Sequence record: PQ821640
Length of the DNA: 64,000 nt
From: Escherichia phage SD2
Strand: one strand, 5' to 3'
Shown one piece after another: positions 4,066 to 22,890 of the stretch. A model generated the notes under the pieces. The model made no database searches. It was not told the origin of the DNA and worked only from the letters and a program-made list of their open reading frames with translations. Every line of letters starts with the position of its first letter. Position 1 is the stretch's first letter. A program made the translations under genes and the position numbers.

Positions 4066-4066
4066 T

Positions 4067-7640: not shown

Positions 7641-7696
7641 CTACCTCTTTTGTTACGATACACACAGAGTACCAGAAACTAATTTCAGATCAAGTA

Positions 7697-7724: not shown

Positions 7725-7756
7725 TAATGCATACACAAATGAGAGGAGATAAACGA

Positions 7757-8559: not shown

Positions 8560-8579
8560 AATACAGACGGGAGAAAGGT

Positions 8580-8753
8580 ATGAGTTTCTTTGTTACAGTA
8601 TTTATGGCTATCTGGATTGTAGTCTCACTCGTTCTTTTCCTGGTGGGTTGTCTGGAAGAGATTAAGAAAGCAGTTATTTGCGGTTTCTTTGGCTTTATTA
8701 TCTCTCCTGCCTGGATGTGGTTCTTCATTATGATTGGTTTCCTTAAAAGGTAA
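8580..8753 (+). CDS. small membrane protein (57 aa)
   Basis: Hand translation MSFFVTVFMAIWIVVSLVLFLVGCLEE...; GGGAGAAAGG SD. Confidence 0.5.
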   Translation: MSFFVTVFMAIWIVVSLVLFLVGCLEEIKKAVICGFFGFIISPAWMWFFIMIGFLKR

Positions 8754-8767
8754 GTGAGGAATAAAGA

Positions 8768-9205
8768 ATGAGTAAAACAAACGCAATCGCAGATAAAGCA
8801 ACGGATGTACTTCTGAACATGGTTAACGTCACTATTCAAACAATGAGTGATGTTGTGGAGTTTGGAAAACAACAAATTCCAGAAGTAATCCATCAATTAC
8901 TAGTGTGGAAAGCAGTATCCGCAGGTTTATGGCAACTTTTTAGTATTTGCTTTATGTTTATTACTTTTATTGCTGTGCGGAACCTCGTAAAAGCAATTAA
9001 AGATAAAGAATGCCTGTGGTCACGAGATCGCTATGGTGAAGTATCTGCTTTACCTATTGTTGGTCTTGTTGTCTGTGCTTTCTTTTTCTTTTTAGGATTT
9101 GTTATTTTCTTTTCGAATTTTGATTGGCTAAAAATCATTATTGCACCAAAAGTGTATCTGATTGAATTTGCTGCTGATTTAATTCGTTCATCTCAACAAA
9201 AATAA
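8768..9205 (+). CDS. hypothetical membrane protein
   Basis: 145 aa with several hydrophobic segments. Confidence 0.7.
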   Translation: MSKTNAIADKATDVLLNMVNVTIQTMSDVVEFGKQQIPEVIHQLLVWKAVSAGLWQLFSICFMFITFIAVRNLVKAIKDKECLWSRDRYGEVSALPIVGLVVCAFFFFLGFVIFFSNFDWLKIIIAPKVYLIEFAADLIRSSQQK

Positions 9206-9216
9206 AAGGGGTTAAA

Positions 9217-10344: not shown

Positions 10345-10360
10345 GTAAGCCAGCAAATAA

Positions 10361-10385
10361 AAACCCGCTTCGGCGGGTTTTCTTG
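10361..10385 (+). terminator. rho-independent terminator
   Basis: CCCGCTTCGGCGGG hairpin followed by TTTTCTT. Confidence 0.75.
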
Positions 10386-10418
10386 CATTAATGCCAGATT
10401 TAATAAGAGGAGTAGTAG

Positions 10419-11408
10419 ATGGCAGCACCAAAATCATGGGAACAATATAAAGAAGAGTGTATACCAATAGCAGAGAGTAAGCAAATCCAAATCTTAGGAT
10501 GGACGGGACAATGGAAAGGGGTCCACACAAAACTTGATTTGTTGTGCCATTGTGGTTATAAATGGGATACTACAAGTATTAACAGTTTTAAATGTGGTAG
10601 CGGTTGTCCACAATGTAGGAGGAAGAATATAAGGAAGTCACAAACAATGTCCGACGATCAACATATTGCAGATTTCTTTTCTACAGGGGAATTTAAGGAA
10701 GGCACTATCTTCACTAACACAGGAACACGGGGTAAAGGATGTAGGAATATTATCTGGATGGTTGAATGTCCTGTTTGCTCTCATGATGAATATGTTCAAG
10801 CAGGTGTTTGTGATGGTAAATTTTACTCTGAAGGAGATAACCTTAAACGAGGGTATATTCCGTGTCGTTGTGGGAACTATCGGTATACAGAAGACCAGAT
10901 CACCTATAGGGTAAAAAAGGAAGTAGAAGGGAAAGGGTATGTCTGGGTAGATTGGATTACCAAACCCTCTTCTATAGGTAAGTTTAAATATCTTTGTCTT
11001 GTGCATGGTGAGCAGATAGGGAGTGCTAATAATTTATTAAGCCTCGGTCGAGGTTGTCCTATGTGTGCTGGTCATAGTCAGCAGCAGTTATATATTAATA
11101 TTGTTAAGGATGATAATATTATAGTTGCTCTTAAGTTTGGTATAGCTAAAGATAGTGATAGGCGATTAAACATTCAAAATAGCCGTAATCTGTTTTTTAT
11201 GGAACGTATTTGTTTATATGATTTTAGCACAGTGAAACAGTGTAAGGCTGCTGAAAGAGCTATAAAGAAAAAATTAAAAACTGGTATTTTAACAGCAAGA
11301 GAGTTGAAAGACGGTCATACAGAAACAGTAAGTGTTTCTGATTTGGAAAATCTTCAAAAAATTATTACACAATATGGTGGCAAGTTAGTATACAATAAGG
11401 AGGTGTAA
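10419..11408 (+). CDS. Cys-rich zinc-ribbon repeat protein, C-terminal T5orf172/GIY-YIG-like region
   Basis: Repeated CxxC pairs (CHCGYKW, GCPQC, CPVCSHDEY, CRCG, GCPMCAGH); AGAGGAG SD. Confidence 0.65.
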   Translation: MAAPKSWEQYKEECIPIAESKQIQILGWTGQWKGVHTKLDLLCHCGYKWDTTSINSFKCGSGCPQCRRKNIRKSQTMSDDQHIADFFSTGEFKEGTIFTNTGTRGKGCRNIIWMVECPVCSHDEYVQAGVCDGKFYSEGDNLKRGYIPCRCGNYRYTEDQITYRVKKEVEGKGYVWVDWITKPSSIGKFKYLCLVHGEQIGSANNLLSLGRGCPMCAGHSQQQLYINIVKDDNIIVALKFGIAKDSDRRLNIQNSRNLFFMERICLYDFSTVKQCKAAERAIKKKLKTGILTARELKDGHTETVSVSDLENLQKIITQYGGKLVYNKEV

Positions 11409-11960
11409 ATGCGGATTACTGATAAGTATGTGTTCTTCTTTTCAGCAAAAGATGAATTTAGCAACTGGTATCTATCATCTTTTATTGAACCTTTAGCACC
11501 CAAGTATAATAATTCTATTACAAGTTCTGTTGAATTTACTTGTGTGGAACAATATATGATGTGGAGAAAAGCATGTTTGTTTTATGATTACAGTATTGCA
11601 TCTTCTATTTTAACCGGAGATCTAAGATATACAGGAGAAAAAGAACAAGCATATTATAAGCGACTAGGCAGATTAGTTAAAGATTATGATGAAGATACCT
11701 GGACTTCTTTACGGGAGAAGATTGTCAAACGTGGTTTGTATCTTAAATACACACAAAATGAAGATCTCAAAAATAAACTTATAACCTACGCAGATAAGGA
11801 GTTCGTAGAGGCAAGCCCTTATGATTCTATTTATGGTATCAAAATGGGGATGTGGGATCGTGACGTGGAAAATAAGGACTGTTGGAAAGGACAAAATCTT
11901 TTAGGAAAATGGCATACAGACCTTGCTGTTTATCTAAAAGCACAATCTGATATTTCCTGA
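11409..11960 (+). CDS. NADAR (YbiA-like, DUF1768) domain protein
   Basis: FFFSAKDEFSNWYLSSF, EQYMMWRKA and GQNLLGKWHTDLAVYL align with my recollection of E. coli YbiA; AAGGAGG SD. Confidence 0.7.
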   Translation: MRITDKYVFFFSAKDEFSNWYLSSFIEPLAPKYNNSITSSVEFTCVEQYMMWRKACLFYDYSIASSILTGDLRYTGEKEQAYYKRLGRLVKDYDEDTWTSLREKIVKRGLYLKYTQNEDLKNKLITYADKEFVEASPYDSIYGIKMGMWDRDVENKDCWKGQNLLGKWHTDLAVYLKAQSDIS

Positions 11961-12020
11961 TATTTTGAAAATTTTTATTTTTATAAAAAGGGGTGTGGGT
12001 TTCATGTACGGAAATTCACC

Positions 12021-12041
12021 CTCTGAATAATATATTCAGAG
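12021..12041. repeat. perfect inverted repeat CTCTGAATA-ATA-TATTCAGAG
   Basis: 9-bp stem, 3-nt loop, read directly; overlaps a second palindrome CAGAGTA...TACTCTG (12037-12062). Confidence 0.6.
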
Positions 12042-12174
12042 TAAATATTATTTTGTACTCTGTTAATAAATTATTTAATTTGTTTGTTGGATTATGATAT
12101 CTGGTTTTTAAAAGGCATACTATCTCTTAACTACTACTTATAACAGAACAGTAAAATCATTTTTATAAAAAGGA

Positions 12175-12382
12175 CAAAATTATTTAAAGTTTTTACAGAT
12201 TTTTGGATACAAATTTTGAAAATGAAAAGTTCAAGTTTGGTCAAAATTATTTAAAGTTTTTGTATGTATTTCTATCCAGATTTTGAAAATGAAAACTTCA
12301 ATTTTTTAAAAATTCCCCAGTTTATTTAAAGTTTTTTTACCTTTTTCCGTAGAAAAATCAAAAATGAAAAGTTCAATTTCGT
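12175..12382. repeat. three tandem direct repeats of about 68 bp
   Basis: Each unit begins TTATTTAAAGTTTTT and ends TTTTGAAAATGAAAAGTTCAA; AT-rich, non-coding. Confidence 0.7.
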
Positions 12383-12400
12383 GTTTTTATGGGTATGCGT

Positions 12401-12515
12401 ATGATAATCATTCTCATTTGTAAATGAGAATCATTATCATTTAATTATGTAAATGATAAGCATTCTCACTAAGAGAATGAGAATCATTAGCAAATGAGAA
12501 TTTTTCTCATTTGCA
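12401..12515. promoter_or_regulatory. cluster of five or more Fur-box-like dyad motifs
   Basis: ATGATAATCATTCTCATT, AATGAGAATCATTATCATT, ATGATAAGCATTCTCA, GAGAATGAGAATCATTAGC, AATGAGAATTTTTCTCATT; compare E. coli Fur box GATAATGATAATCATTATC. Confidence 0.45.
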
Positions 12516-12772
12516 GAATAACGCGCAGGGGCGGTGTTTGTCTCGCGCTCCCGTGTCCCCTCGCCATACAATAAGAATAGCATAACCAACAACAAAAGCA
12601 AGCGATTATTTTTATCTTTACATTTCTTTACAAATTTATTTTAGACGAGCTACCGGCGATCAACCTTCCAACCAGTGCCCCTGGTATGTTAGCCCCGCCT
12701 TTACGCCGTGGGGGTGGCGCTTCCTCTTCTGTATGTAAAACAGTATAAGCCCGATCCCTGGGCTTGTCAAGA

Positions 12773-13039
12773 TTATTTTTTGTTTTCTTGCCAGGATAGG
12801 ACACCTAACCAAAAATACATGTCGCCCCGTGCCCCTGGCGGGATCTTGCTTTCCCCGCCGCCACTGCAAGCCCATAAATAACCATTTACGAACGTATCAA
12901 AGTGATCTATCTCTTCCACCTTATGATCGCCCAGGTTGAGAACGGTTTCAACCTTTAAGCCCGTTGCGCTTGCTACCTGGTGCACCGTGCCGCCTTGCCA
13001 GCCCAATGAGTGCATGAGATGTAAAGGAGTATTTGTCAT
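12773..13039 (-). CDS. hypothetical protein inside a GC-rich, compositionally atypical segment
   Basis: 88-aa ORF on the opposite strand to the surrounding plus block, within 12520-13130 which is visibly GC-richer; overlapping track ORFs in other frames judged spurious. Confidence 0.4.
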   Translation of the reverse strand: MTNTPLHLMHSLGWQGGTVHQVASATGLKVETVLNLGDHKVEEIDHFDTFVNGYLWACSGGGESKIPPGARGDMYFWLGVLSWQENKK

Positions 13040-13149
13040 GGTATCGCCCTTTCTTTGATGTGCGCCCTGGTTGGCGCGGTAGAAAGATAATAGCCGTTTC
13101 CTTTATAGATAGCAAGCAAAAAAGAAATGAAAAAAGATTAAAAAAATGG

Positions 13150-13209
13150 TTGACGTTCCTCACCTGGTAGCGTAGTATTCATCTTGTCGAGGGGCGGCAA
13201 TAGTGCCGC
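13150..13209 (+). promoter_or_regulatory. promoter (TTGACG-17-TAGTAT) plus 5' hairpin GCGGC-AATAGT-GCCGC
   Basis: Read directly; upstream of ORF 13234. Confidence 0.6.
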
Positions 13210-13233
13210 TCATAACAGAAGAGAGAAATAATC

Positions 13234-13506
13234 ATGGCATCATATAGCGCATCAATGATCGTAGCTGGCATCACTGGTAAACCTATGCGCGGTGGCGGAT
13301 CTTTCGCTAACATCAATATTGATGGACGTTTATCCCTGGACGCAGCGATCACAGTGGCACGGGAAACGTTTAAAAAAGAATGTAATTTCAATAAACAAGA
13401 TTATCTCGGTTTCGCTATTGAAAAAACCGCGCGATTTGTGGATTATAAAAGCCCGAAAATGATCGACACTACACTAAAAGCGCAAGATGTAGCGTTTTTG
13501 CTTTAA
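13234..13506 (+). CDS. hypothetical early protein
   Basis: 90 aa; preceded by promoter-hairpin cassette. Confidence 0.7.
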   Translation: MASYSASMIVAGITGKPMRGGGSFANINIDGRLSLDAAITVARETFKKECNFNKQDYLGFAIEKTARFVDYKSPKMIDTTLKAQDVAFLL

Positions 13507-13509
13507 GTC

Positions 13510-13569
13510 TTGACACTGAAAAATAATTTGGTAATATATACTCCATAAGGCGGGAAATGGTTTCCCGCC
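13510..13569 (+). promoter_or_regulatory. promoter (TTGACA-16-TAATAT) plus hairpin GGCGGGAAA-TGG-TTTCCCGCC
   Basis: Perfect 9-bp stem at 13549-13569, read directly. Confidence 0.65.
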
Positions 13570-13591
13570 AAAACAAAGAAAGGGTAACACA

Positions 13592-13954
13592 ATGAGCAAG
13601 CAAATCAATACTATCATGTTAAACCTGGTATCTTTCCGCGATGACGTGAAAAACCTTTCGCGTGATGCAGTGGATGCACGGATCGAAAGCTATCGCACAC
13701 AGATCGCAACGTTACCGCTGAAACGTGATCAACATGCCGCTAATATGATGCTTGATGCTATGATTAAAAAGATGATTCAATGTGATCTTACCCTGGCTTA
13801 TGAATATGCTGGCGATCTCTTTGTAACATATAGCAAGCCCGTTCCAGGTATGAGCACCACGGAAGAATTGCATGCCTTAAATCTGCGACAAGATGCATGG
13901 GATAACATGCGCCGTGTTATGGTATGGGTAGAAAGCGGTAAAATTTACGAATAA
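13592..13954 (+). CDS. hypothetical early protein
   Basis: 120 aa; AAGGG SD. Confidence 0.7.
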   Translation: MSKQINTIMLNLVSFRDDVKNLSRDAVDARIESYRTQIATLPLKRDQHAANMMLDAMIKKMIQCDLTLAYEYAGDLFVTYSKPVPGMSTTEELHALNLRQDAWDNMRRVMVWVESGKIYE

Positions 13955-13960
13955 AAACGG

Positions 13961-14014
13961 TTGACATTGCACTAAAACCTGATAAGCTATCTTAAAGCGG
14001 GAATTGTTCCCGCT
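13961..14014 (+). promoter_or_regulatory. promoter (TTGACA) plus hairpin AGCGGGAA-TTG-TTCCCGCT
   Basis: Read directly; -10 weak. Confidence 0.5.
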
Positions 14015-14032
14015 TACATAGGATAAAACTTT

Positions 14033-14179
14033 ATGAAACAATATGTAATGAGTATTCATACCAAAAACGGCGCTACTGTTACGACTCCGGCACGGTTTGC
14101 ACTTGTAAACCGTTGCAAGAGACTAAAACGAGAGTTAAAAAATAACCGTGCAACGGGCTTTAAACGCTGGGGAGGATAA
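14033..14179 (+). CDS. small basic protein (48 aa)
   Basis: Hand translation MKQYVMSIHTKNGATVTTPARFALVNRCKRLKRELKNNRATGFKRWGG. Confidence 0.5.
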   Translation: MKQYVMSIHTKNGATVTTPARFALVNRCKRLKRELKNNRATGFKRWGG

Positions 14180-14181
14180 TC

Positions 14182-14442
14182 TTGTTTTTTCTAAAAGTTT
14201 TTGATAATGTGATCGCTTTTGAACATGCTACAACGTTCGACCTGGCGAGATACGCTATCAGGTTTAAAGATAATGTTTATCCCCGTGCTGGCGGCGGTTA
14301 CACTATTTTTAATCATCGCAACGCGCAACTGACTGATGTAACTAATCCAGATCCTGGAGTGTATCGCATAGGCTGGCTACCGTCAAAAGACGCGGCAAGC
14401 ATGTTTAAGTTATGTAAACTACTAACAGAAGAGGCGAACTAA
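14182..14442 (+). CDS. hypothetical protein, TTG start
   Basis: GGGAGG 6 nt upstream of TTG; no in-frame ATG near the start. Confidence 0.45.
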   Translation: MFFLKVFDNVIAFEHATTFDLARYAIRFKDNVYPRAGGGYTIFNHRNAQLTDVTNPDPGVYRIGWLPSKDAASMFKLCKLLTEEAN

Positions 14443-14443
14443 C

Positions 14444-14998
14444 ATGGGGCGTGAATATGTGATCCAGTCCTGGGTAAAGCATGACGCAAATGATCCGCGC
14501 ATAATACCAGATGACATGATCGATCACATGGTGGGGTATAGCGGGGAGCAGATAGGAAATCGAGCGGCAAAGAGCAACGGCAACACCAGAACGAGATCCG
14601 TTCGCCCTGGATGGCTGGCAAATGGTAACGCTGACATTGCAAGCGCCGCAGATCCAAGCGATGACGCTAAAAATAATCCCTTGTATAACATTGATCCGGC
14701 TTTTAAGGTGTTGGAAGAGTATCCCGCTAAATTAGCCGCACTAGATAAAGCATACGAAGAAAAACGGGTGGCATGGACTGTATACAACACCGCTAAAATG
14801 GTGCTAGATGCAAAATTGATTAAAGCCCAGGAGAAGATCAATAAACTTGTTACCATAGCGCAAGAGGAAGACCAGGACGACCAGGAGGAAGAGGAAGAAA
14901 TCATGCCTATCCTGGAAGAGGAAGAGATCCAGCCATACATGCCGACGGAAGAGGAAAAAAGACAAGCCTTAAAAAATTATAAAAATTGTATTGTGTAA
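14444..14998 (+). CDS. hypothetical protein with acidic C-terminal tail
   Basis: 184 aa ending in an EDQDDQEEEEE-rich tail. Confidence 0.7.
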   Translation: MGREYVIQSWVKHDANDPRIIPDDMIDHMVGYSGEQIGNRAAKSNGNTRTRSVRPGWLANGNADIASAADPSDDAKNNPLYNIDPAFKVLEEYPAKLAALDKAYEEKRVAWTVYNTAKMVLDAKLIKAQEKINKLVTIAQEEDQDDQEEEEEIMPILEEEEIQPYMPTEEEKRQALKNYKNCIV

Positions 14999-15001
14999 GG
15001 C

Positions 15002-15057
15002 TTGACATATGCAAACAAGCCCCGTAATATGTACCACATAGAGCGGGGCAACGCCCC
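15002..15057 (+). promoter_or_regulatory. promoter (TTGACA-17-TAATAT) plus hairpin GGGGC-AAC-GCCCC, no ORF directly downstream
   Basis: Followed by a second promoter rather than an RBS. Confidence 0.55.
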
Positions 15058-15079
15058 ATAAGGTGAAATAAAAAATCAC

Positions 15080-15108
15080 TTGACACCTGAAATCAGTAAG
15101 CTATAATG
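15080..15108 (+). promoter_or_regulatory. sigma70 consensus promoter (TTGACA-17-TATAAT)
   Basis: Perfect -35 and -10 hexamers. Confidence 0.65.
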
Positions 15109-15144
15109 CTTATATAAATTAAAGCGTTACTAAGGAATAAAATC

Positions 15145-15510
15145 ATGGCTAAAAATATTAATGTTTCTGCTTATGCTACCCTGGCTAATACTGCTAAAAT
15201 TGAACTATCCAGCATTGAAGCGGTACATATTAGCGCCCGTCGCTGGTTTCAAAAGTCTTATGGTAATACTTATTTCTCTTTGATGGTTGACGTTGAGATC
15301 GGCGGTAAACTGATTGAAGTCGTTAACGTTCCGTTTCATTATGGTTATGGTGATCATTTTGATACCGTTGCCCTGGAAGAGTTTAGCAAGGTTATCAACC
15401 TGGAAGGTAAAGAGTTTTCAAATTATGCTTATCTTTCCCGTTTTTGCCGTGATAATGGGATCGCTGTATACAGTCATGCAAGCGATGTTAAACGTAAAAA
15501 AGATTTATAA
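15145..15510 (+). CDS. hypothetical early protein
   Basis: 121 aa. Confidence 0.7.
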   Translation: MAKNINVSAYATLANTAKIELSSIEAVHISARRWFQKSYGNTYFSLMVDVEIGGKLIEVVNVPFHYGYGDHFDTVALEEFSKVINLEGKEFSNYAYLSRFCRDNGIAVYSHASDVKRKKDL

Positions 15511-15516
15511 AAAGCA

Positions 15517-15576
15517 TTGACAGCACGAATAAAAAGAGTAAAATGTTTCATATCAGGACGGGGGAACGGTTTCCCC
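15517..15576 (+). promoter_or_regulatory. promoter (TTGACA-16-TAAAAT) plus hairpin GGGGGAA-CGG-TTTCCCC
   Basis: Read directly. Confidence 0.55.
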
Positions 15577-15599
15577 TCCTAACAAAGAGAGAAATAAAA

Positions 15600-15782
15600 A
15601 TGGCTAAATGCACTATTTGTAAGAAAGAAATAGTATTAGTTCCAAGCGCCCGTGAACGTGCCGCTAAGTTCGGTGGCAAACCGTCAGACTATACGAAAAT
15701 GTTTACTACCCATGCAGCTTGTCAAGTAGCAAAACGTTCACAAGAAAGCGTAGAATTAATGCGTAAACTTTCCAAAAAATAA
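15600..15782 (+). CDS. small Cys-containing protein (60 aa), possible zinc ribbon
   Basis: Track ORF started inside the promoter; ATG at 15600 follows GAGAGA; CTICKK...HAAC. Confidence 0.6.
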   Translation: MAKCTICKKEIVLVPSARERAAKFGGKPSDYTKMFTTHAACQVAKRSQESVELMRKLSKK

Positions 15783-15785
15783 GTA

Positions 15786-15844
15786 TTGACAAAGTATTTT
15801 ATTACTATATAATGGTTTACATCGAGAGCGGGAATAGTTCCCGC
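15786..15844 (+). promoter_or_regulatory. promoter (TTGACA-16-TATAAT) plus hairpin GCGGGAA-TAG-TTCCCGC
   Basis: Read directly. Confidence 0.65.
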
Positions 15845-15868
15845 CTCACTGAAAAAGAGATTAACATC

Positions 15869-16108
15869 ATGGCTAAATCTAAAATGTACAACGGTCACAA
15901 AAATAAAACTCATTGGAATGTAAGCCTTTGGATTAATAACGATCCAGGTTTTTATAATATGGCAAAAGAATTTATAGCCGTGAACAACAATAAAGATAAC
16001 GCCGCGCGTGAAATGATGTCATTACTTAACGAAATGGGCCAAAATACTACGCCAGATGGCTATAAATTCAGTAAAACCAGTATCCGCGCCGCTATGGTAG
16101 GAATGTAA
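15869..16108 (+). CDS. hypothetical early protein
   Basis: Start trimmed to ATG after the hairpin (MAKSKMYNG...). Confidence 0.65.
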   Translation: MAKSKMYNGHKNKTHWNVSLWINNDPGFYNMAKEFIAVNNNKDNAAREMMSLLNEMGQNTTPDGYKFSKTSIRAAMVGM

Positions 16109-16117
16109 TAAAAGCAG

Positions 16118-16177
16118 TTGACAACGTTTTTTAATCTGGTATAGTTTATCACATAGGGCGGGAAATGGTTTCCCGCC
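16118..16177 (+). promoter_or_regulatory. promoter (TTGACA-16-TATAGT) plus hairpin GGCGGGAAA-TGG-TTTCCCGCC
   Basis: Read directly. Confidence 0.65.
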
Positions 16178-16199
16178 AAATGAAAGAAAGGTTATCATT

Positions 16200-16427
16200 A
16201 TGGCTATCGTTATTGTTCGCGTATCCGGCACGGTTGGAATCTCCCAGGTAGTAGCAGTTATCACCGAGAAGAAAGGGGATGATCTTCACTCCTCCTTGAA
16301 TAGCTGGGCGGTCGCTAATTTCGGGCAATGGTCGAGCGTTGAGTATATCGAATCCTACCAGGTGCCAACGATTAGCCTAACCGATCTGAATGTTGATCGC
16401 TTATTGTGCCTGGATGGATTAAACTAA
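16200..16427 (+). CDS. hypothetical early protein
   Basis: 75 aa. Confidence 0.65.
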   Translation: MAIVIVRVSGTVGISQVVAVITEKKGDDLHSSLNSWAVANFGQWSSVEYIESYQVPTISLTDLNVDRLLCLDGLN

Positions 16428-16435
16428 AAATAATC

Positions 16436-16491
16436 TTGACAAGATAACTAAAATCAGTAAAATGTAATGCATAGGGCGGCAATAGTGCCGC
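16436..16491 (+). promoter_or_regulatory. promoter (TTGACA-16-TAAAAT) plus hairpin GCGGC-AATAGT-GCCGC
   Basis: Read directly. Confidence 0.65.
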
Positions 16492-16514
16492 TCATAGTAA
16501 GAGAGATTATCAAA

Positions 16515-16730
16515 ATGGCTAATATCCGCACACTGTTAAAAAATGCAAGTCAAGTTTTATTTTCAGATGACGAGTATTTCAACAAAGACATTACAGGCGT
16601 GAAAAATTTAAAAGACGTGAAGGATGTTATCGGTATCCGTGGATCTTTACGTAAAGGTGACATATACGGTAACAAGGTGCAATATAAACTATCAAAAGAT
16701 TATGATTTTACTTTGACAATTATTTCATAA
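16515..16730 (+). CDS. hypothetical early protein
   Basis: Start trimmed to ATG at 16515 (MANIRTLL...). Confidence 0.65.
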   Translation: MANIRTLLKNASQVLFSDDEYFNKDITGVKNLKDVKDVIGIRGSLRKGDIYGNKVQYKLSKDYDFTLTIIS

Positions 16731-16737
16731 AACTACT

Positions 16738-16797
16738 TGCAAACCTGGTAAAATAAAGTAAACTATATTCATTAAGGCGGTGGAATAGCCCACCGCC
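16738..16797 (+). promoter_or_regulatory. promoter-like region plus hairpin GGCGGTGG-AATAGC-CCACCGCC
   Basis: 8-bp perfect stem; promoter hexamers less clear (TTGCAA, TAAACT). Confidence 0.45.
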
Positions 16798-16820
16798 TAA
16801 CAAAGAGAAGAGGAAACATC

Positions 16821-16991
16821 ATGATCACTTTCGCTACCCGTGAAGCCGCTCGCAACGTTGCACGTAAAGTTAACGCCGCCAACCTGGGCGCTACGCTTAA
16901 AGCCCCGGTGAAAGATGAATCAGGAAAATGGATCTTTCCTGGTCTGCGTCACGCTGATAAGCTGGGGACATTAACGTTAAAAAATAAATAA
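16821..16991 (+). CDS. small hypothetical protein (56 aa)
   Basis: Hand translation MITFATREAARNVARKVNAANLG...; GAGGAAA SD. Confidence 0.55.
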   Translation: MITFATREAARNVARKVNAANLGATLKAPVKDESGKWIFPGLRHADKLGTLTLKNK

Positions 16992-16998
16992 TATCCGC

Positions 16999-17027
16999 TT
17001 GACAGTAGCATCATTTATAAGTAAAGT
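16999..17027 (+). promoter_or_regulatory. sigma70-like promoter (TTGACA-17-TAAAGT)
   Basis: Read directly; no hairpin of the usual type. Confidence 0.45.
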
Positions 17028-17121
17028 AACAACAACGGCGGGAAAATTATTGGTTATATATTGCAAGCATGATCATAACTTTGGCAAAATATCATAACGT
17101 AGCGTAATCGAGAGGAAAAAC

Positions 17122-17259
17122 ATGAACGCATCACAGCAGATCGAAAAATTCAACCGCAGCAAGGCGCGTAAAAATTGGAACGAAGAGATCACCAAGAAAG
17201 GCGATAAGCGGAACAAAACAAAAAGAGATCGCAGCACAAAAAGACACTGGAACGAATAA
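17122..17259 (+). CDS. small basic protein (45 aa)
   Basis: MNASQQIEKFNRSKARKNWNEEITKKGDKRNKTKRDRSTKRHWNE; GAGAGGAAA SD; terminator immediately downstream. Confidence 0.5.
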   Translation: MNASQQIEKFNRSKARKNWNEEITKKGDKRNKTKRDRSTKRHWNE

Positions 17260-17262
17260 CAA

Positions 17263-17287
17263 AAAGGGCGCAATAAGCGCCCTTTTA
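17263..17287 (+). terminator. rho-independent terminator
   Basis: GGGCGC-AATAA-GCGCCC then TTTT. Confidence 0.75.
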
Positions 17288-17377
17288 GCTTATATAGAGG
17301 CTTGTTACCCATAGGCAATGGTAACGCCAGGGCAAGCCTATAAATCAACGTTAGACGGCTTTACAGGAGCTTTAAAA

Positions 17378-17560
17378 ATGAGATTAGAAGAAATAAGCAA
17401 GGCACTAGCCCAGGGGCAAAGGTTATGCGCCCGATATCGTGATCAATATGGCTTTATAACTAGCGGCGTGATCCTGGGGATTGAAGGCAATAAAATTTTT
17501 ATTGACACGTTGAAAAACGTTGTATATAGTGACAATATAATCTCAATAAAACATATATGA
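17378..17560 (+). CDS. hypothetical protein (60 aa)
   Basis: Start at ATG after CAGGAG SD; track ORF begins earlier at 17318. Confidence 0.5.
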   Translation: MRLEEISKALAQGQRLCARYRDQYGFITSGVILGIEGNKIFIDTLKNVVYSDNIISIKHI

Positions 17561-17568
17561 GGCAAGAA

Positions 17569-17970
17569 ATGAAAAAATTATTGATCGCTGGTTTAATCTC
17601 TTTTGGCATGGTTGGAACATCTAGCGCGGCGATATCCTCCACAGTAGCAGAATTAAGCGCCGTTGATGCAATGGAAAACGTCATGATCATTAATAACGCG
17701 ATCCCCGATGAAATCATGGAGGATTCACACATGATCGCTTATGGTGCTGTTACACAATTAACGGCAAAAATAGATAAATCTATTGTTAATGGCTTAAATG
17801 AAGATGTACCATGTGAAATTATTACCAGTGTGCTAACGACTCAAAATTTTACGCCGTGGCTAAAAAGTATTCAAAAGGTACACAGCACCGCCGCAGATCG
17901 TAGCAATGAAAAACTAGTGTCAGCACTTGCAACGTATACCCTAGCAAAATGTACCGAGATAAAAGGTTGA
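17569..17970 (+). CDS. hypothetical secreted/periplasmic protein
   Basis: MKKLLIAGLISFGMVGTSSAA signal-peptide-like N-terminus; GAGG SD. Confidence 0.65.
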   Translation: MKKLLIAGLISFGMVGTSSAAISSTVAELSAVDAMENVMIINNAIPDEIMEDSHMIAYGAVTQLTAKIDKSIVNGLNEDVPCEIITSVLTTQNFTPWLKSIQKVHSTAADRSNEKLVSALATYTLAKCTEIKG

Positions 17971-17993
17971 CAATATAGAAAGCACGTTATAAG
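17967..17993 (+). promoter_or_regulatory. sigma70-like promoter (TTGACA-15-TATAAG)
   Basis: Read directly. Confidence 0.45.
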
Positions 17994-18015
17994 ATACACA
18001 ACAAAGGAGAACCAC

Positions 18016-18318
18016 ATGAACGGCATAGCTAAAACGTTTTTTCTTTTTTCTGGTGTAAATGATCCATCAATAAAAGTCGATAGTGTAAAAGAAAACAATA
18101 CTATCACCGCTAAATTGTTTCAAGATGAAACAAATAACGTGCTAATCATTAATCTTAAAGAAATAACGAAAGGTTATTATACTATTGCTTACCATGCGAT
18201 CTATCATGCGGGTACTAGTGAGGAAGTGCAAACAAGCAACAACGAAAGCGCGGCGCTACCTGGTGATCTGGTGCTGGGCGTTATCAGTTTAATTGTCAAT
18301 GATTTTTTTAAGGAGTAA
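18016..18318 (+). CDS. hypothetical protein
   Basis: 100 aa; AAGGAG SD. Confidence 0.65.
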   Translation: MNGIAKTFFLFSGVNDPSIKVDSVKENNTITAKLFQDETNNVLIINLKEITKGYYTIAYHAIYHAGTSEEVQTSNNESAALPGDLVLGVISLIVNDFFKE

Positions 18319-18322
18319 AACC

Positions 18323-18418
18323 ATGCCCTATTTACATTTATTTTTCGGTATCTTATTGACAGGATCTTTTTTCTTCTGTATGCTTGTTTCTATTGTAAAC
18401 CACGTTTTAAGACATTAA
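18323..18418 (+). CDS. tiny hydrophobic peptide (31 aa)
   Basis: MPYLHLFFGILLTGSFFFCMLVSIVNHVLRH; AAGGAG SD. Confidence 0.3.
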   Translation: MPYLHLFFGILLTGSFFFCMLVSIVNHVLRH

Positions 18419-18427
18419 GGAAACAGC

Positions 18428-18547
18428 ATGAAAATTATTCCCGTACAGTATAGCGTAATAAATCCAGCATATGAGGAAGGAAGGAAAACAAGCATGGCTT
18501 TATGTTGTATTACTACTATAGCCATGTTATTATATATTGTGTTTTAA
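18428..18547 (+). CDS. tiny membrane peptide (39 aa)
   Basis: MKIIPVQYSVINPAYEEGRKTSMALCCITTIAMLLYIVF; AAGGAAA SD. Confidence 0.3.
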   Translation: MKIIPVQYSVINPAYEEGRKTSMALCCITTIAMLLYIVF

Positions 18548-18576
18548 TAGGTTTTATAGTTGTACGCTTTAAAGGC

Positions 18577-18604
18577 TTGACAATTTTTTGTTATGCTTTA
18601 AAAT
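18577..18604 (+). promoter_or_regulatory. sigma70-like promoter (TTGACA-16-TAAAAT)
   Basis: Read directly. Confidence 0.45.
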
Positions 18605-18647
18605 ATATCTTGAAAACGGCAAAGGCCGCAAACAAAAGGGTAAAATT

Positions 18648-18971
18648 ATGAAATCTGTGATCGGTGTTTATTTGGATAACTCTGATTTTTTCTATCATCG
18701 TGCGCGTTTCCTTGATGCGATTGAAATGATAGAATCAGGCTTTAAAGAGTATCGCCTTGCACATGATGACCTGGAAGCATTACAGGGCAATAGTGTTTTT
18801 ACATTGCAAGCTAAAGCACTATGTAAAAGCCGGATCGACATTGCGAGCAAAAAGATAGAACGCGGCATGTCCTGGTTACGCACCGCAGAAATTAACATGG
18901 GGCAATGGTACGGCGAAAACTTAGAAAATAAACTCACTTTTGTAAATGTAGAAAATCTTAAAGATTATTGA
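18648..18971 (+). CDS. hypothetical protein
   Basis: Start trimmed to ATG at 18648. Confidence 0.6.
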   Translation: MKSVIGVYLDNSDFFYHRARFLDAIEMIESGFKEYRLAHDDLEALQGNSVFTLQAKALCKSRIDIASKKIERGMSWLRTAEINMGQWYGENLENKLTFVNVENLKDY

Positions 18972-19033
18972 TTGACAGCACGCCTGATAAGGAGTATATT
19001 GTATCTCATAGAGCGGGGAAATGGTTTCCCCGC
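18972..19033 (+). promoter_or_regulatory. promoter (TTGACA-17-TATATT) plus hairpin GCGGGGAAA-TGG-TTTCCCCGC
   Basis: Read directly. Confidence 0.65.
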
Positions 19034-19053
19034 CTTAACAGAAGAGATAAGAT

Positions 19054-19338
19054 ATGAAAATCACAAAAGCACTTTTCAACTATGCAGCACGTCGCGGATT
19101 ATGCTTATCCGTTGAAAATTTAGGAAAAGAAGATTTTTTGTGCTTTTGGGAGCTTGAGAATGATAATGAGTGGATCTTCTCTTATTCTATCTGCAAAGAT
19201 CAAAATGGTTGCTTGTTAACCTGGCACGGTAATATCTATTTGCCGGAAGAAATAAAACAAGAATTACCAGGCACGATCATGACTGAGAAACAGCTTAAGG
19301 AAGTGATCAATTTTGTAAGGCAAAACATTAAAAAATAA
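19054..19338 (+). CDS. hypothetical early protein
   Basis: 94 aa. Confidence 0.7.
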   Translation: MKITKALFNYAARRGLCLSVENLGKEDFLCFWELENDNEWIFSYSICKDQNGCLLTWHGNIYLPEEIKQELPGTIMTEKQLKEVINFVRQNIKK

Positions 19339-19339
19339 T

Positions 19340-19400
19340 TTGACAGTAGGCAAACAACGTAGTAAAGTTTACCACATAGGGCGGGAAATGGTTTCCCGCC
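19340..19400 (+). promoter_or_regulatory. promoter (TTGACA-17-TAAAGT) plus hairpin GGCGGGAAA-TGG-TTTCCCGCC
   Basis: Read directly. Confidence 0.6.
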
Positions 19401-19418
19401 AGAATAGAGAGAACTAAA

Positions 19419-19523
19419 ATGATTATTCTTACCATGATGTGCGCGGCGGTTATTATTCCTTTGATAACGCTTATTGTTTCTGAGATCGATGATCTTCTCT
19501 TTGAAAGAAGTTTAAAAAAGTAA
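19419..19523 (+). CDS. tiny membrane peptide (34 aa)
   Basis: MIILTMMCAAVIIPLITLIVSEIDDLLFERSLKK. Confidence 0.4.
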   Translation: MIILTMMCAAVIIPLITLIVSEIDDLLFERSLKK

Positions 19524-19585
19524 TTGACAACGGCTAATAAGCTGATAATATGTATCACATAGGGCGGGGCAATAAGGCAACGCCC
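19524..19585 (+). promoter_or_regulatory. promoter (TTGACA-17-TAATAT) plus weaker hairpin GGGCG...CGCCC
   Basis: 5-bp stem with long loop. Confidence 0.5.
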
Positions 19586-19603
19586 ACTAATGAGGGTAGC
19601 ATC

Positions 19604-19708
19604 ATGTTAGAGAAAATTTTCACGGTTGTAATAGTGGGCCTGGCGTTATCGGTTGGAGTGATTGCAACTATGGCTAACATGATCCTATCTTCCCACGGTA
19701 TCGGCTAA
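19604..19708 (+). CDS. tiny membrane peptide (34 aa)
   Basis: MLEKIFTVVIVGLALSVGVIATMANMILSSHGIG. Confidence 0.4.
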   Translation: MLEKIFTVVIVGLALSVGVIATMANMILSSHGIG

Positions 19709-19722
19709 AAGAGAAACACAAC

Positions 19723-20109
19723 ATGAAAACAGAAATCATTATTGAAATCATCAACGGTTATAAAGAAGCCTTTATTTTTGCTGAATCAGCAAGGGATCAT
19801 GAAGGTAATTTTATTGATAACTTAGACGATTATGATTTTTCAGATCAAGCCCATCAACGGATCATTAATGACGTAGCGGCTTATTGTGATGCCAATGATG
19901 CTGCTATCTCTGAGGCAATGAGCGACGGCGCAACAGCAAACCAGATCGGGAATGATTTACATTTTACCCGTAACGGTCACGGCGTAGGTTTTTGGGATCG
20001 CCCTGAAATATACACTACTAACACCGCCAACCGCCTAACAAATGCAGCTAGATTAATGCCATCGGTGCATGCTTACATTGGTGAAGATAATTTGATTTAT
20101 ATTGAATAA
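19723..20109 (+). CDS. hypothetical protein
   Basis: 128 aa. Confidence 0.7.
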   Translation: MKTEIIIEIINGYKEAFIFAESARDHEGNFIDNLDDYDFSDQAHQRIINDVAAYCDANDAAISEAMSDGATANQIGNDLHFTRNGHGVGFWDRPEIYTTNTANRLTNAARLMPSVHAYIGEDNLIYIE

Positions 20110-20115
20110 AAAGTG

Positions 20116-20174
20116 TTGACACCGATCCCCAATATGGTATTATTTACCACGTAGGCGGGAAATGGTTTCCCGCC
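20116..20174 (+). promoter_or_regulatory. promoter (TTGACA-16-TATTAT) plus hairpin GGCGGGAAA-TGG-TTTCCCGCC
   Basis: Read directly. Confidence 0.65.
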
Positions 20175-20198
20175 AGGTAATCAAAAAAGGTAAACATT

Positions 20199-20588
20199 AT
20201 GCGCAACCTGATTTCTGTTTCTAACGTTGAAAAATTTCAATCCTTGCAGGGTATCATTAACAACGTAGCGCCTTTTTTAGTCAATGGCTTGATTGCAAAG
20301 ATGAAAAATAAACATCATGCGGCATGGTCTGCTTATTGCTTTGATAATGATGAAAAAGCGGCTGAAATGATGTTAAATATGCTTTTGGATAGTGTAGAAT
20401 CATCTTTACCGGAAAACATCGCAGAAGAGATCACCTATCGTTATAATATGGCGATCACTTACCAGGAGGTTGCGCAATTCAACATGATGGATGATGACGA
20501 ACAACAGGATCAAGAAATGTTCTGGGAGTATGCAGATCGTCAATCGGCTTTTGATGAAAAGTTAGCGATGTATTATAACGAATATTAA
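20199..20588 (+). CDS. hypothetical acidic protein
   Basis: 129 aa. Confidence 0.7.
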   Translation: MRNLISVSNVEKFQSLQGIINNVAPFLVNGLIAKMKNKHHAAWSAYCFDNDEKAAEMMLNMLLDSVESSLPENIAEEITYRYNMAITYQEVAQFNMMDDDEQQDQEMFWEYADRQSAFDEKLAMYYNEY

Positions 20589-20602
20589 TACACGGTAAAA
20601 GA

Positions 20603-20630
20603 AAGGGGCGCACTAAGCGCCCTTTTTTGT
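20603..20630 (+). terminator. rho-independent terminator
   Basis: GGGCGC-ACTAA-GCGCCC then TTTTTT. Confidence 0.75.
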
Positions 20631-20973
20631 ATTCTTTTTTCACGATGGAAACAACACGTAAAGAATAGGCGTAAAGGTGGCGTAAAACAGCCTAAAACCG
20701 ATTATAACCGCTTAAACAAGGTAGGGATGATTAATCACCTTACCAGGATGAAAAAGCCGTTATAAAGCTATCTAGAGCGTTTAAAGCACATAGGAAATAA
20801 TTTGCTTTTTATCTTGCCTTTTATTCTGCTTTTGATTATTATTATGGAACGGGCGGCACCTGGGAGCAGGGGAAGATAATCACCGGACGATCTTATTATA
20901 TATTGATAGCTTCCACCTATCAAACAACAAAACATTAAAGAAATAAACTATCAAATCTTTACAATCTCACCTA

Positions 20974-21033
20974 TTGACACCGGATCGCCCTTATACTAAG
21001 ATGTATCACGTAGGCGGGAAGTGGTTTCCCGCT
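20974..21033 (+). promoter_or_regulatory. promoter (TTGACA-17-TAAGAT) plus hairpin GCGGGAAG-TGG-TTTCCCGC
   Basis: Read directly. Confidence 0.55.
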
Positions 21034-21051
21034 CAATATAGGAATCATATC

Positions 21052-21282
21052 ATGATCGAACAAATTAAACGCGCTGAGGCTATTAACGGCAATGTGATCT
21101 ACTCTGTCAGCAATAACGAAAAAGGCGTACCTTATGCAGCGGTGATAGTACAGCCTGACGGTGATTATTGGTTTACTGTATACGGATCTTATTCTTTTGG
21201 GCGTCCAGTACATGATAAAATTTTGAAAGTAGCTAATCCCACTGGGAAGAATATCACAGTAGAAAAATTCTTTGAAAAATAA
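21052..21282 (+). CDS. hypothetical early protein
   Basis: Start trimmed to ATG at 21052. Confidence 0.65.
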   Translation: MIEQIKRAEAINGNVIYSVSNNEKGVPYAAVIVQPDGDYWFTVYGSYSFGRPVHDKILKVANPTGKNITVEKFFEK

Positions 21283-21357
21283 CTTGCTTTATAGCCTCTG
21301 TTAATTTATAGTTATCGTGTAGGGCAAGCAATTTTAAACGGTAAACGAGGAATCTCC

Positions 21358-21741
21358 ATGAGCAATATCATCAACCTGGCGGCTACTGTAAACGGTAAAG
21401 ATTTTAACGGCGCTGTAGATCGTGATCCTATGTGGTACTTGTCAGTATTTAAAGGCGATCTGGTTGAAGTTAGAACAACCGAAGGGTATAGCGATGATTA
21501 TAAATGCGAGATCCATTTACATAACTGGTACACGGGGAAAACTTATGCGCTAAACCATGCGTTTATCGGGAAAATTGAATATCGCGAGATGATCGACGAA
21601 GAAACGGGGCAAGATTTTAGCGATTATGTTTATATTCGTTCAGAAACATTAGCCGAACGTTTGATCGAGAAAATGAAAGCAAAAAATAAAATTAATTTAG
21701 CTCATTGGCTTGATATAACAAACGATCCGGCTTATAAGTAA
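21358..21741 (+). CDS. hypothetical protein
   Basis: 127 aa; GAGGAA SD. Confidence 0.7.
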   Translation: MSNIINLAATVNGKDFNGAVDRDPMWYLSVFKGDLVEVRTTEGYSDDYKCEIHLHNWYTGKTYALNHAFIGKIEYREMIDEETGQDFSDYVYIRSETLAERLIEKMKAKNKINLAHWLDITNDPAYK

Positions 21742-21751
21742 ATAACATTTC

Positions 21752-21785
21752 ACACCAGGGCGCACAAAGCGCCCTTTCTTTTTTA
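21752..21785 (+). terminator. rho-independent terminator
   Basis: AGGGCGC-ACAAA-GCGCCCT then TTCTTTTTT. Confidence 0.75.
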
Positions 21786-21988
21786 CCTAAATAAAGATGA
21801 TAGCTTTTACCTATCAAAAACGTTCACCGAAAAAAGTGAATAGATCGCGGTATCGAGCTAATCAAGGAGCAGATGAACAACCATACCATGAAGATCATAA
21901 GGCGCTTACAACGTGTTTTAGACCGCTTATTTTTAATTTCTTCATGTAACTATCTGGCAAAAACAGCCTTTTTCTTGTCTTTCCTCTT

Positions 21989-22065
21989 AAATGATAATCA
22001 TTCTTATTTATAGCTGATTATTTATGCAATAAACTGAATAATGTAATAATGATAATCATTCTTAA
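21989..22065. promoter_or_regulatory. two direct copies of AATGATAATCATTCTTA (Fur-box-like)
   Basis: At about 21989 and 22047 inside an AT-rich non-coding region. Confidence 0.45.
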
Positions 22066-22890
22066 CTTAAGACCATCTAACCTATAAAATAATAAGTTAT
22101 CTAACTAAATTAAAACTAATTATCTCACCTTTATTTATAACTTACTGTTACTATCTCATTGATAACCTTATATTAAACAACAATAACTAATATAAATTAT
22201 TACTAAGCTAAATATAATCTATCTAACCTTTAAAACTATAATTATAATCTATCGAATTGTTGCACAAAGTAACTATTAAATTGTTAGTAACATTACTAAA
22301 TAATTAATATCCTATCTATTTATGATCTAATCTTTACCTTCCTATTTATTACCTAAATAATCATTTCATACCGTAATCATTTCATACAATAATTATAACA
22401 AGAAATATAATTAACAAGCGTATCATTAGCAGCCTATGCCGGACACATAGGCGGCTAATAATAACGCAACTACACACCCCACATAATAACCATCACCGAT
22501 AGTTATTATTTGTGCTTATGTAGCTTGCAACAACTGCAAGCGCAACAATATACATGGTATATTGTATTCCCTTACATTGTTGCGGTGCGTTATTATTAGC
22601 TAATGTTTGGAACATTGGCTATAATATAAGCTATCCAATAATAAACATAGTGAATAATAACCCTGATGATCATAATGCGCCACCTTCCAGGGGGCGCTAT
22701 GTGAACACAAAGAAATCTTTCTTGTCAAGAAAAATATTACCATTATTGCGCAAAATTATTTACATCTGAATAGATGGTTTTTCATACTATTGCCCCATAT
22801 AGCCTATCATTTGTTGAGCCTACTTTCTTAAAAGCGCAATAAATTAGAATTATCTTGATTTTTAGGGCGTTTTATAGTATAGAAAATATG

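Follow-up and report, generated by a model that had tools for sequence, protein, structure and literature searches.

Introduction

Promoter-early stem-loops (PeSLs) are repeated cassettes of a sigma70 promoter and a stem-loop located between the ORFans of the T4-like phages RB49 and phi1, and the roles proposed for them are the termination of transcription coming from upstream, the shuffling of modules and the formation of mini-circles (Arbiol et al. 2010, PMC2839356). Further PeSLs were described later in the phages PST and nt-1 (Comeau et al. 2014, PMC4122927). One RB49 stem-loop lowered a lacZ reporter as strongly as rrnB T1, and as a speculation the same authors considered binding of the GGGG...CCCC stem by a recombination protein (Arbiol et al. 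2010, PMC2839356). A further type of phage stem-loop is the 5'-terminal stabilising structure, of which the leader of T4 gene 32 is an example (cited in PMC8948821). In the present study we describe a PeSL-like element in Escherichia phage SD2 (sequence record PQ821640), of which a stretch of 64,000 nucleotides (nt), hereafter the window, was analysed. About 17 near-identical units of ~85 bp, arranged in an array at 13150-21051, drive small early genes of this phi92-like coliphage, and their stem-loop is predicted to be transcribed as a hairpin in the 5' leader.

The same motif has left traces in public records. In the ASO2A record (MZ726793; L005 in our set of loci) every hairpin stands directly after a "promoter" and bears the label "rho-independent terminator", which goes back to WebGeSTer and, for two of the hairpins, to TransTermHP, and in the phAPEC8 record (NC_020079; L013) the 20-mer ATAGGGCGGCAATGGTGCCG is a "putative promoter determined with PHIRE" placed directly after a "host dependent promoter"; the TTGACA of the orthologous phAPEC8 cassettes overlaps the end of the upstream open reading frame (ORF). 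GenBank labels the motif contradictorily: the annotation tools noticed it and gave no interpretation. The papers on rV5, CB7 and CBB describe sigma70 promoters only, and reliance on the host RNA polymerase is reported in the rV5 paper. A description of the leader hairpin was not found in the literature searched, outside which the papers on phi92 (Schwarzer 2012) and PVP-SE1 (Santos 2011) fall.

Results

Anatomy and confinement of the cassettes

Direct reading and a scripted scan located, on the + strand at 13150-21051, 14 cassettes whose GC-rich hairpin is intact; their -35 elements start at 13150, 13510, 13961, 15002, 15517, 15786, 16118, 16436, 16737, 18972, 19340, 19524, 20116 and 20974. 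This agrees with the first-pass annotation of the stretch, made from the letters and their ORFs, which had claimed at least 14 cassettes of promoter, hairpin and ribosome-binding site. Outside the 14 there are one cassette with half a hairpin (16999), one with a weak hairpin (18577) and two hairpin-less promoters (15080 and 17967). The unit reads TTGACA-N16/17-TAnnnT, about 10-14 nt (usually KTAYCAC-R-TAG), a GC hairpin, an unpaired A/G-rich leader with a Shine-Dalgarno sequence (SD), and ATG. Among the 14 cassettes the -35 is TTGACA save for one TTGACG and one TTGCAA; the promoter spacer is 16-17 nt; the stem begins 10-14 nt after the end of the -10 (once 6 nt), and 17-24 nt of A/G-rich leader separate the end of the stem from the ATG. 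A spacer of 15-17 nt had been claimed before, of which 16 and 17 were found and 15 was not; a CAYATAG-like block, also part of that claim, is present in most cassettes. The SD and ATG follow the hairpin directly in 13 of the 14, the exception being the cassette at 15002, after which comes the second promoter at 15080. Judged by eye, the stretch of 25 nt that precedes each -35 is rich in A and contains the upstream stop codon.

The context of the start codon is often ATGGCTAA. Six cassette-driven ORFs (13234, 15145, 15600, 15869, 16200 and 16515) start with ATGGC(T/A), giving MA(K/N/I/S), and five of them have exactly ATGGCTA, a start also found in the jumbo phage slurp01 (L006). Thus, the homology of the cassettes extends into the first codons.

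A strong sigma70-like promoter, TTGACA-N16/17-TAnnnT, is present in at least 17 cassettes of the array. Furthermore, 18 of the 25 exact + strand TTGACA-N16-18-TAnnnT sites of the window fall within these 7.9 kb, in line with the earlier statement that sigma70-consensus promoters precede the small ORFs. A covariance model covering the segment from transcription start site (TSS) through hairpin to leader was run over the 64 kb with filters off; every match with E<1 lies at 13538-21045 on the + strand, apart from mirror matches to perfect palindromes. The features of the region are the following.

13150..21051, + strand: whole array of early-expression cassettes and small ORFs.
13150..13233, + strand: cassette 1, TTGACG-17-TAGTAT; hairpin 13192-13211 (GGGCGGCA-ATAG-TGCCGCTC); ATG 13234.
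13510..13591, + strand: cassette 2; hairpin 13549-13569 (GGCGGGAAA-TGG-TTTCCCGCC); ATG 13592.
13961..14032, + strand: cassette 3; hairpin 13995-14015 (AAGCGGGAA-TTG-TTCCCGCTT), 6 nt past the -10, with ACATAGG standing 3' of the hairpin; ATG 14033.
15002..15079, + strand: cassette 4, an orphan; hairpin 15045-15057 (GGGGC-AAC-GCCCC), then another promoter and no ORF.
15080..15144, + strand: hairpin-less consensus promoter, TTGACA-16-TATAAT; ATG 15145.
15517..15599, + strand: cassette 5; hairpin 15555-15580 (jumbo-phage-type core GGGGGAA-CGG-TTTCCCC); ATG 15600.
15539..15823, + strand: inserted single-gene module, ~285 bp by alignment, consisting of -10/TSS/hairpin/ribosome-binding site, an ORF of 60 amino acids (15600-15782) and UP/-35/-10/TSS.
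15786..15868, + strand: cassette 6; hairpin 15828-15844 (GCGGGAA-TAG-TTCCCGC); ATG 15869.
16118..16199, + strand: cassette 7; hairpin 16157-16177 (GGCGGGAAA-TGG-TTTCCCGCC); ATG 16200.
16436..16514, + strand: cassette 8; hairpin 16474-16493 (GGGCGGCA-ATAG-TGCCGCTC); ATG 16515.
16737..16820, + strand: cassette 9, TTGCAA -35; hairpin 16775-16798 (AGGCGGTGG-AATAGC-CCACCGCCT); ATG 16821.
16999..17121, + strand: cassette 10, broken; promoter and the 5' arm alone, GGCGGGAAA (17037-17045).
17967..18015, + strand: hairpin-less promoter, TTGACA-17-TAAGAT; ATG 18016.
18577..18647, + strand: promoter with a weak 4-bp hairpin, CGGC-AAAG-GCCG; ATG 18648.
18972..19053, + strand: cassette 13; hairpin 19013-19033 (GCGGGGAAA-TGG-TTTCCCCGC); ATG 19054.
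19340..19418, + strand: cassette 14; hairpin 19380-19400 (GGCGGGAAA-TGG-TTTCCCGCC); ATG 19419.
19524..19603, + strand: cassette 15; composite hairpin 19562-19585 (GGGCG-GGGCAATAAGGCAA-CGCCC); ATG 19604.
20116..20198, + strand: cassette 16; hairpin 20154-20174 (GGCGGGAAA-TGG-TTTCCCGCC); ATG 20199.
20974..21051, + strand: cassette 17; hairpin 21013-21032 (GGCGGGAAG-TGG-TTTCCCGC, one G.U pair); ATG 21052.
17262..17286, - strand in the scan, the + strand stem ending in TTTT: terminator-type hairpin GGGCGC...GCGCCC with A-run and T-run flanks.
20600..20628, + strand: intrinsic terminator of the canonical type; T-run; lies 5' of the next promoter.
21757-21775: terminator-type hairpin with a T-run.

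Structure of the leader hairpin

Folding of the 14 cassettes gave one hairpin close to the 5' end of each predicted leader, with energies between about -8 and -19 kcal/mol and z <= -3.2 in 10 of the 14; the remaining part of the leader is predicted to be unpaired, as are the SD and the AUG. This was the check that the first-pass annotation had suggested for its structurally conserved hairpin in the predicted 5' leader, and the folds are in accord with it. A covariance model had also been suggested; seeded with the 9-3-9 stem class in order to overcome out-of-register stems, it aligned 133 copies, 82 of them distinct, from the window and ten related loci. Among the 82 distinct copies 98.5% of the cells form standard pairs, and compensatory changes on both sides occur in 4 of the 9 pairs (34 cells), in an alignment fitted to the model, which favours the structure. 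These values were reached by 0 of 500 shuffles, and all slid registers were far worse. RNAalifold on a plain MAFFT alignment of whole cassettes predicted no structure, the variable stems being out of register.

A comparison independent of the model found 45 distinct hairpins of several stem classes in the same position. The classes are GGCGGGAAA/TTTCCCGCC, GGGCGGCA/TGCCGCTC, GGCGGTGG/CCACCGCC, GGGGC/GCCCC and AAGCGGGAA/TTCCCGCTT, together with the jumbo-phage classes GGGGAGAA/TTCTCCCC and GAGGGGAA/TTCCCCTC. The class changes at orthologous sites before the same ORF, as between 13150 of the window and 1446 of ESCO13. As the stem class varies in the same position with pairing kept, the hairpin is a generic, exchangeable element selected for pairing; the selection is on the pairing and not on the sequence of the stem, and the earlier remark that stems differ while pairing is kept is upheld by both the covariation and the 45 hairpins. 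On the gene-sense rows of the model alignment G.U outnumbers A.C by 32 to 8 cells, an excess that is suggestive of a structure on the sense strand (RNA); it is not independent evidence, because one outer pair of one hairpin class dominates it, and a strand-symmetric count of G.T vs A.C on self-defined stems gives 13 vs 12.

The 11 nt after the -10 read K-T-A-Y-C-A-C-R-T-A-G. Among the 79 distinct cassettes of the window and its relatives, 74 have a purine at position 8 after the -10 (A in 51, G in 23), and a C precedes this position in 69. A pyrimidine-purine step at -1/+1 at the normal distance from the -10 is the pattern expected of a promoter start, and the most likely start of transcription, as far as sequence can place it, is this purine, the R of C-R-TAG. 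Most transcripts would then begin R-U-A-(G) and enter the hairpin, which would occupy roughly +4/+5 to +25. Counted from this predicted +1, 3-5 unpaired 5' nt precede the stem in most cassettes (range 0-7).

Recombination at the cassettes

The source of the window is, by sequence match, a phi92-like coliphage (Justusliebigvirus, Stephanstirmvirinae). Against Justusliebigvirus/phi92-like coliphages the array is 95-98% identical and split into 5-9 separate pieces per genome, and against Phapecoctavirus it is about 85% identical; the region is mosaic among relatives, between small ORFans. The segment 12800-21400 was aligned by local BLAST to phi92, EC.P2, muut and ESCO8, and comparatively to ESCO13 and ASO2A; nearly every internal alignment end lies in a cassette. 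When the breakpoints against the four close relatives are merged, and those within 10 nt are counted as in a cassette, 17 of 21 fall there, with 21% expected (P about 7e-9).

Analysis of single junctions at the level of the nucleotide, which we find more telling than the count, shows how the modules differ. One cassette of phi92 and EC.P2 is composed of the 5' part of cassette 5 of the window (15517) and the 3' part of cassette 6 (15786), from which it follows that the window carries an inserted module of ~285 bp. This module is absent from phi92, EC.P2, ESCO8 and ESCO13, both of its crossovers lie in the -10/TSS part of a cassette, and muut has a different ORF in its slot. EC.P2 and ESCO8 carry an extra module at the 15080 cassette, joined at the common ATGGCTA start, and in phi92 an extra module (gp225) is joined at the 5' edge of hairpin 1 (13192). 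The half hairpin at 17037-17045 corresponds to a deletion of ~323 bp relative to phi92, inside gp236, joined via 8-9 bp of microhomology (GCGGGAAA); the junction links the 5' arm GGCGGGAAA to GCGGGAAAATT/GCGGGAAAATTATTGG inside phi92 gp236. A replacement breakpoint against phi92 lies within the hairpin of cassette 14, at 19387, and another breakpoint in cassette 16, at 20173. Being near-identical direct repeats, the cassettes also act as crossover points.

In a metagenomic relative from IMG/VR (L003, 654-698, against window 16765-16809) the stems AGGCGGTGG/CCACCGCCT of cassette 9 are unchanged and the 6-nt loop is exactly reverse-complemented, from AATAGC to GCTATT. To judge from the two sequences, this flip is the signature of a hairpin-mediated inversion at the DNA level.

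Occurrence in other phage groups

BLAST extends the inserted module over 323 bp (15538-15860; slurp01 L006 4001-4323), with 86-89% identity to about 28 Asteriusvirus (121Q/PBECO4-like) jumbo phages, whose genomes are around 350 kb. Only about 8 Justusliebigvirus genomes have it. Its ORF alone is ~72% identical in the Klebsiella jumbo phages K64-1 and RCIP0023, which suggests a transfer from the jumbo lineage; the module thus looks like an inter-family horizontal transfer. In slurp01 the same cassette design occupies nearly every intergenic gap of the locus examined, the unit being TTGACA-16-TATAAT-AGTTTACATCAAG-GGGGAGAA-TAG-TTCTCCCC-ACTAACAGAG...ATG.

Promoter-hairpin-leader cassettes are also present in FV3 (rV5-like, Vequintavirus), and cassette 15 with its ORF of 34 amino acids is 92-95% identical to rV5-like phages including FV3. 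The design is therefore common to three coliphage groups, Stephanstirmvirinae, Asteriusvirus and Vequintavirus.

Three further observations were made on these loci. At 5150-5211 of slurp01 (L006) a hairpin GGCGGGA-TCAG-TTCCCGCC is followed by TTTTTT, with no promoter, and it looks like a genuine terminator derived from a cassette hairpin. FV3 (L012) has, alongside its leader-hairpin cassettes, a second intergenic repeat, TTTATTTTTAGATGGCCTTGACTCCAGGGCCATCAATAAAGTAAAC, at 13831-13910, 14452-14539 and 18171-18255 and as a variant at 14786-14861; its short hairpin spans the -35 (TTGACT), a geometry like that of the RB49 PeSLs. Finally, ~340 bp of the window without a convincing ORF (20630-20970), between the terminator at 20600-20628 and the last cassette, contain GGGCGGCACCTGG..., a sequence that forms a strong hairpin in FV3 (L012 20890-21010; z = -4.7). 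The copy of the window folds no better than shuffles and is without a match in Rfam.

Genes of the array and its flanks

All 20 small ORFs scanned in the array belong to PHROGs of unknown function, in keeping with the first reading, which had recognised no motifs in them. In phi92 the equivalent of the array is gp225-gp247, all hypothetical. By similarity to annotated BASEL phages, the upstream flank (1-13100) encodes a UvrD/Rep helicase with an intein and an FtsH-like protease, and the downstream flank (21400-46000) a Dcm-like methyltransferase, a sirtuin-family protein, a phosphatase and a site-specific recombinase/invertase.

Discussion

We propose that the array is a set of portable early-expression cassettes, in which the transcribed hairpin serves as a cap and insulator of the RNA and the repeats serve as crossover points for the exchange of modules, a reading to which we assign a probability of roughly 0.55. 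A unit of ~85 bp would open with an A-rich stretch, to which are joined, in this order, a near-consensus sigma70 promoter, the start site, the hairpin, an open SD leader and the start codon. On the sense transcript the hairpin may form a structural cap near the 5' end, independent of its sequence, which would protect and insulate each short early mRNA; on RNA reading through from the upstream gene it could also be a barrier to 3' exonucleases. The design of the leader would keep the ribosome site open whatever ORF is attached. Via the repeats, phi92-like phages could gain, lose and substitute single-gene modules, and could trade them with unrelated phages of the same design, a role that has likewise been proposed for PeSLs in T4-like phages.

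The proposal is supported directly by the anatomy of the cassettes, their structural conservation and confinement to the early array, the absence of U-tracts, the association with breakpoints and one transfer between families; that the hairpin acts as RNA, as a stabiliser or insulator, is our inference. Several points weigh against it. A palindrome alone cannot tell a function in RNA from one in DNA, and the copy with the inverted loop indicates that a DNA hairpin or cruciform forms at least occasionally. The start site is placed by the spacing from the -10 and the pyrimidine-purine rule. Emory et al. 1992 and work on the specificity of RppH are said to put 3-5 unpaired 5' nt at the limit for protective 5' stem-loops; the role of 5' stabiliser, one of three offered by the first-pass annotation, is accordingly plausible and borderline. 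Selection for intact genes contributes to the excess of breakpoints, because almost all the intergenic DNA here is cassette. Lastly, the stem-loop of an RB49 PeSL cut lacZ as much as rrnB T1, and the hairpins of the array might likewise have a role as attenuators.

This last result belongs to the PeSL interpretation of Arbiol et al., under which the hairpins would be terminators or attenuators that insulate the genes from upstream read-through. The labels of WebGeSTer and TransTermHP on the ASO2A hairpins, and the hairpin of the same type in slurp01 that runs into TTTTTT with no promoter, speak in the same direction. However, a scan for at least 5 T in the 8 nt right after a GC-rich stem passed 0 of the 14 hairpins, whose tails are A-rich and hold 0-3 T in those 8 nt, whereas the three canonical terminators of the region (17262-17286, 20600-20628 and 21757-21775) have T-runs. 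The canonical terminators are used where they are needed, upstream of the next promoter, and the two that are listed for the + strand sit there; the cassette hairpins stand between promoter and ribosome-binding site, not at the end of a transcription unit, and 5-25 nt after their own promoter they would stop their own transcripts too. T4-type PeSLs have, moreover, another geometry, with the stem-loop lying 5' of the promoter or within it. Lacking a U-tract and lying downstream of the promoter, the hairpins are not classical terminators, and we regard this explanation as unlikely. An operator, the second of the roles offered at first, would be a palindrome at +5 to +25 of the DNA bound by a phage early-shut-off repressor or another duplex-DNA-binding protein. 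Its position fits that of classical steric operators, the GGCGG...CCGCC core is common to most phi92-type copies and the adjoining KTAYCACRTAG block is conserved, but the sequence and length of the stem vary within one genome, and the GGCGG/CCGCC arms, being 8-12 nt apart, come to lie on different helical faces. The loops vary as well (3-11 nt, with one relative having the loop inverted), the jumbo-phage copies carry GGGGAGAA/TTCTCCCC instead, and the compensatory changes keep the pairing and not the identity of half-sites. The evidence thus turns against this role, which is to us very unlikely.

Alternatively, the RNA hairpin could be recognised by a specific protein, such as an antiterminator of the boxB/N type, a translational repressor like RegA or a processing endonuclease, which would coordinate the early mRNAs. 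The large number of copies, all in the same orientation and in one temporal class, the AAT(A/G)G motif that recurs centrally atop many hairpins and the sharing of the design by three phage groups would suit such a protein. A loop of variable length and sequence that tolerates inversion suits it poorly, no boxA-like partner was noticed, and a scan of 12500-22500 against Rfam at E <= 1 gave no match, so that we see little chance for it. With stems of only 5-12 bp, too short for the enzyme, an RNase III site was rejected. The remaining explanation places the function in the DNA, as an extruded hairpin or cruciform that is a hotspot of recombination or replication, or as a phage-specific promoter of the kind marked by PHIRE in phAPEC8, with transcription being incidental. 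The junctions in a stem or at its edge (13192, 17037-17045, 19387 and 20173), the loop flip of L003, which supports extrusion, the annotation of the phAPEC8 20-mer as a putative promoter, and the recombination protein that Arbiol et al. imagined on the GGGG...CCCC stem (PMC2839356) are all in its favour. Other junctions, however, lie in the -10/TSS part or at ATGGCTA, as plain homology predicts, and a recombination signal would need neither a fixed place between start site and ribosome-binding site nor a constant distance to the ATG. There is also no sensible -10 with a leader 3' of the hairpin, and the rV5 paper reports reliance on the host polymerase. A function in the DNA of this kind is, in our estimate, improbable. 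An N4-like hairpin promoter, or a phage promoter as called by PHIRE, was rejected by inspection on these same two grounds.

The view could be widened, tentatively and with considerable doubt on our side. A leader hairpin with an open, A-rich ribosome-binding site would be a generic design of early mRNAs in at least three unrelated coliphage groups, shielding them from decay that depends on the 5' end, whether driven by the host or accelerated by the phage, and letting single anti-host genes, in the manner of a universal adapter, pass between unrelated phages and be expressed correctly on arrival. If the proposal of portable cassettes is correct, it would explain how large virulent coliphages keep an arsenal of small early genes (host takeover or anti-defence) in fast turnover: each gene would sit in a self-contained, pre-tuned expression unit whose repeated ends double as homology arms, even across families. 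The PeSL concept would be extended beyond T4-like phages, with a distinct geometry in which the stem-loop is an element of the 5' leader. The cassette also offers a compact natural promoter and 5' untranslated region part for synthetic biology, the covariance model is a sequence handle for early-gene arrays and module boundaries in phage genomes, and the contradictory database labels for one motif, "terminator" and "promoter", are corrected.

Among known hairpins, REP-type 3' barriers and the RNase III sites of the T7 early region are intercistronic. The cassette hairpins resemble both in lying between tandem early genes, where they could define or stabilise read-through segments, but their stems are too short for RNase III and each unit has its own promoter. 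With intrinsic terminators they share a GC-rich stem of 5-12 bp and a loop of 3-6 nt, and prediction tools call some of them so; they differ in having no U-tract, in following a promoter and in co-existing with canonical terminators in the same region. The boxB of lambda nut and the put sites of HK022 (PMC9378689) are likewise RNA structures encoded just downstream of early promoters; here, in contrast, the loop is not conserved, no boxA was noticed and the two-hairpin fold of put is absent, and there is one hairpin per gene rather than one site per operon. The E. coli ompA leader, the T4 gene 32 leader and engineered 5' hairpins also have a hairpin a few nt from the 5' end, which in our case is predicted, together with an open ribosome-binding site. 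These stabilisers serve single genes and their effects on half-life have been measured, whereas the present hairpin is repeated 14 times, is modular and has a predicted overhang of 3-5 nt that is borderline.

The closest relatives are the PeSLs. In both there is a repeated intergenic AT-rich region with a strong sigma70-like promoter, a G-run/C-run stem-loop, and SD and ATG; a stable stem-loop, here with arms of the GGCGGG/CCCGCC type, adjoins the promoter; the copies are concentrated among small ORFans in plastic early regions; and the cassettes contain the junctions at which close relatives differ by an indel or a replacement. The geometry is different. In the RB49 cassettes, which we read directly, the stem-loop occupies the spacer between -35 and -10 (TTGACAGGGGATC...GATCCCCTATAAT) or covers the -10, and in PST and nt-1 just upstream of the promoter, whereas here it is neither upstream of, inside nor overlapping the promoter and stands uniformly downstream of the predicted start, in the cassette's own 5' leader and 10-14 nt past the -10. 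Only the rare RB49 subclass "downstream of -10" comes close. The lack of U-tracts is a further difference, and the host phages are Stephanstirmvirinae, and also Asteriusvirus and Vequintavirus, instead of Straboviridae. Since composition, setting and recombination signature are shared while geometry and phage family differ, the cassettes are PeSL-like and not strict members of the PeSLs, and they are best read as analogues of the T4-type elements in which the stem-loop would be transcribed as a 5'-proximal leader hairpin.

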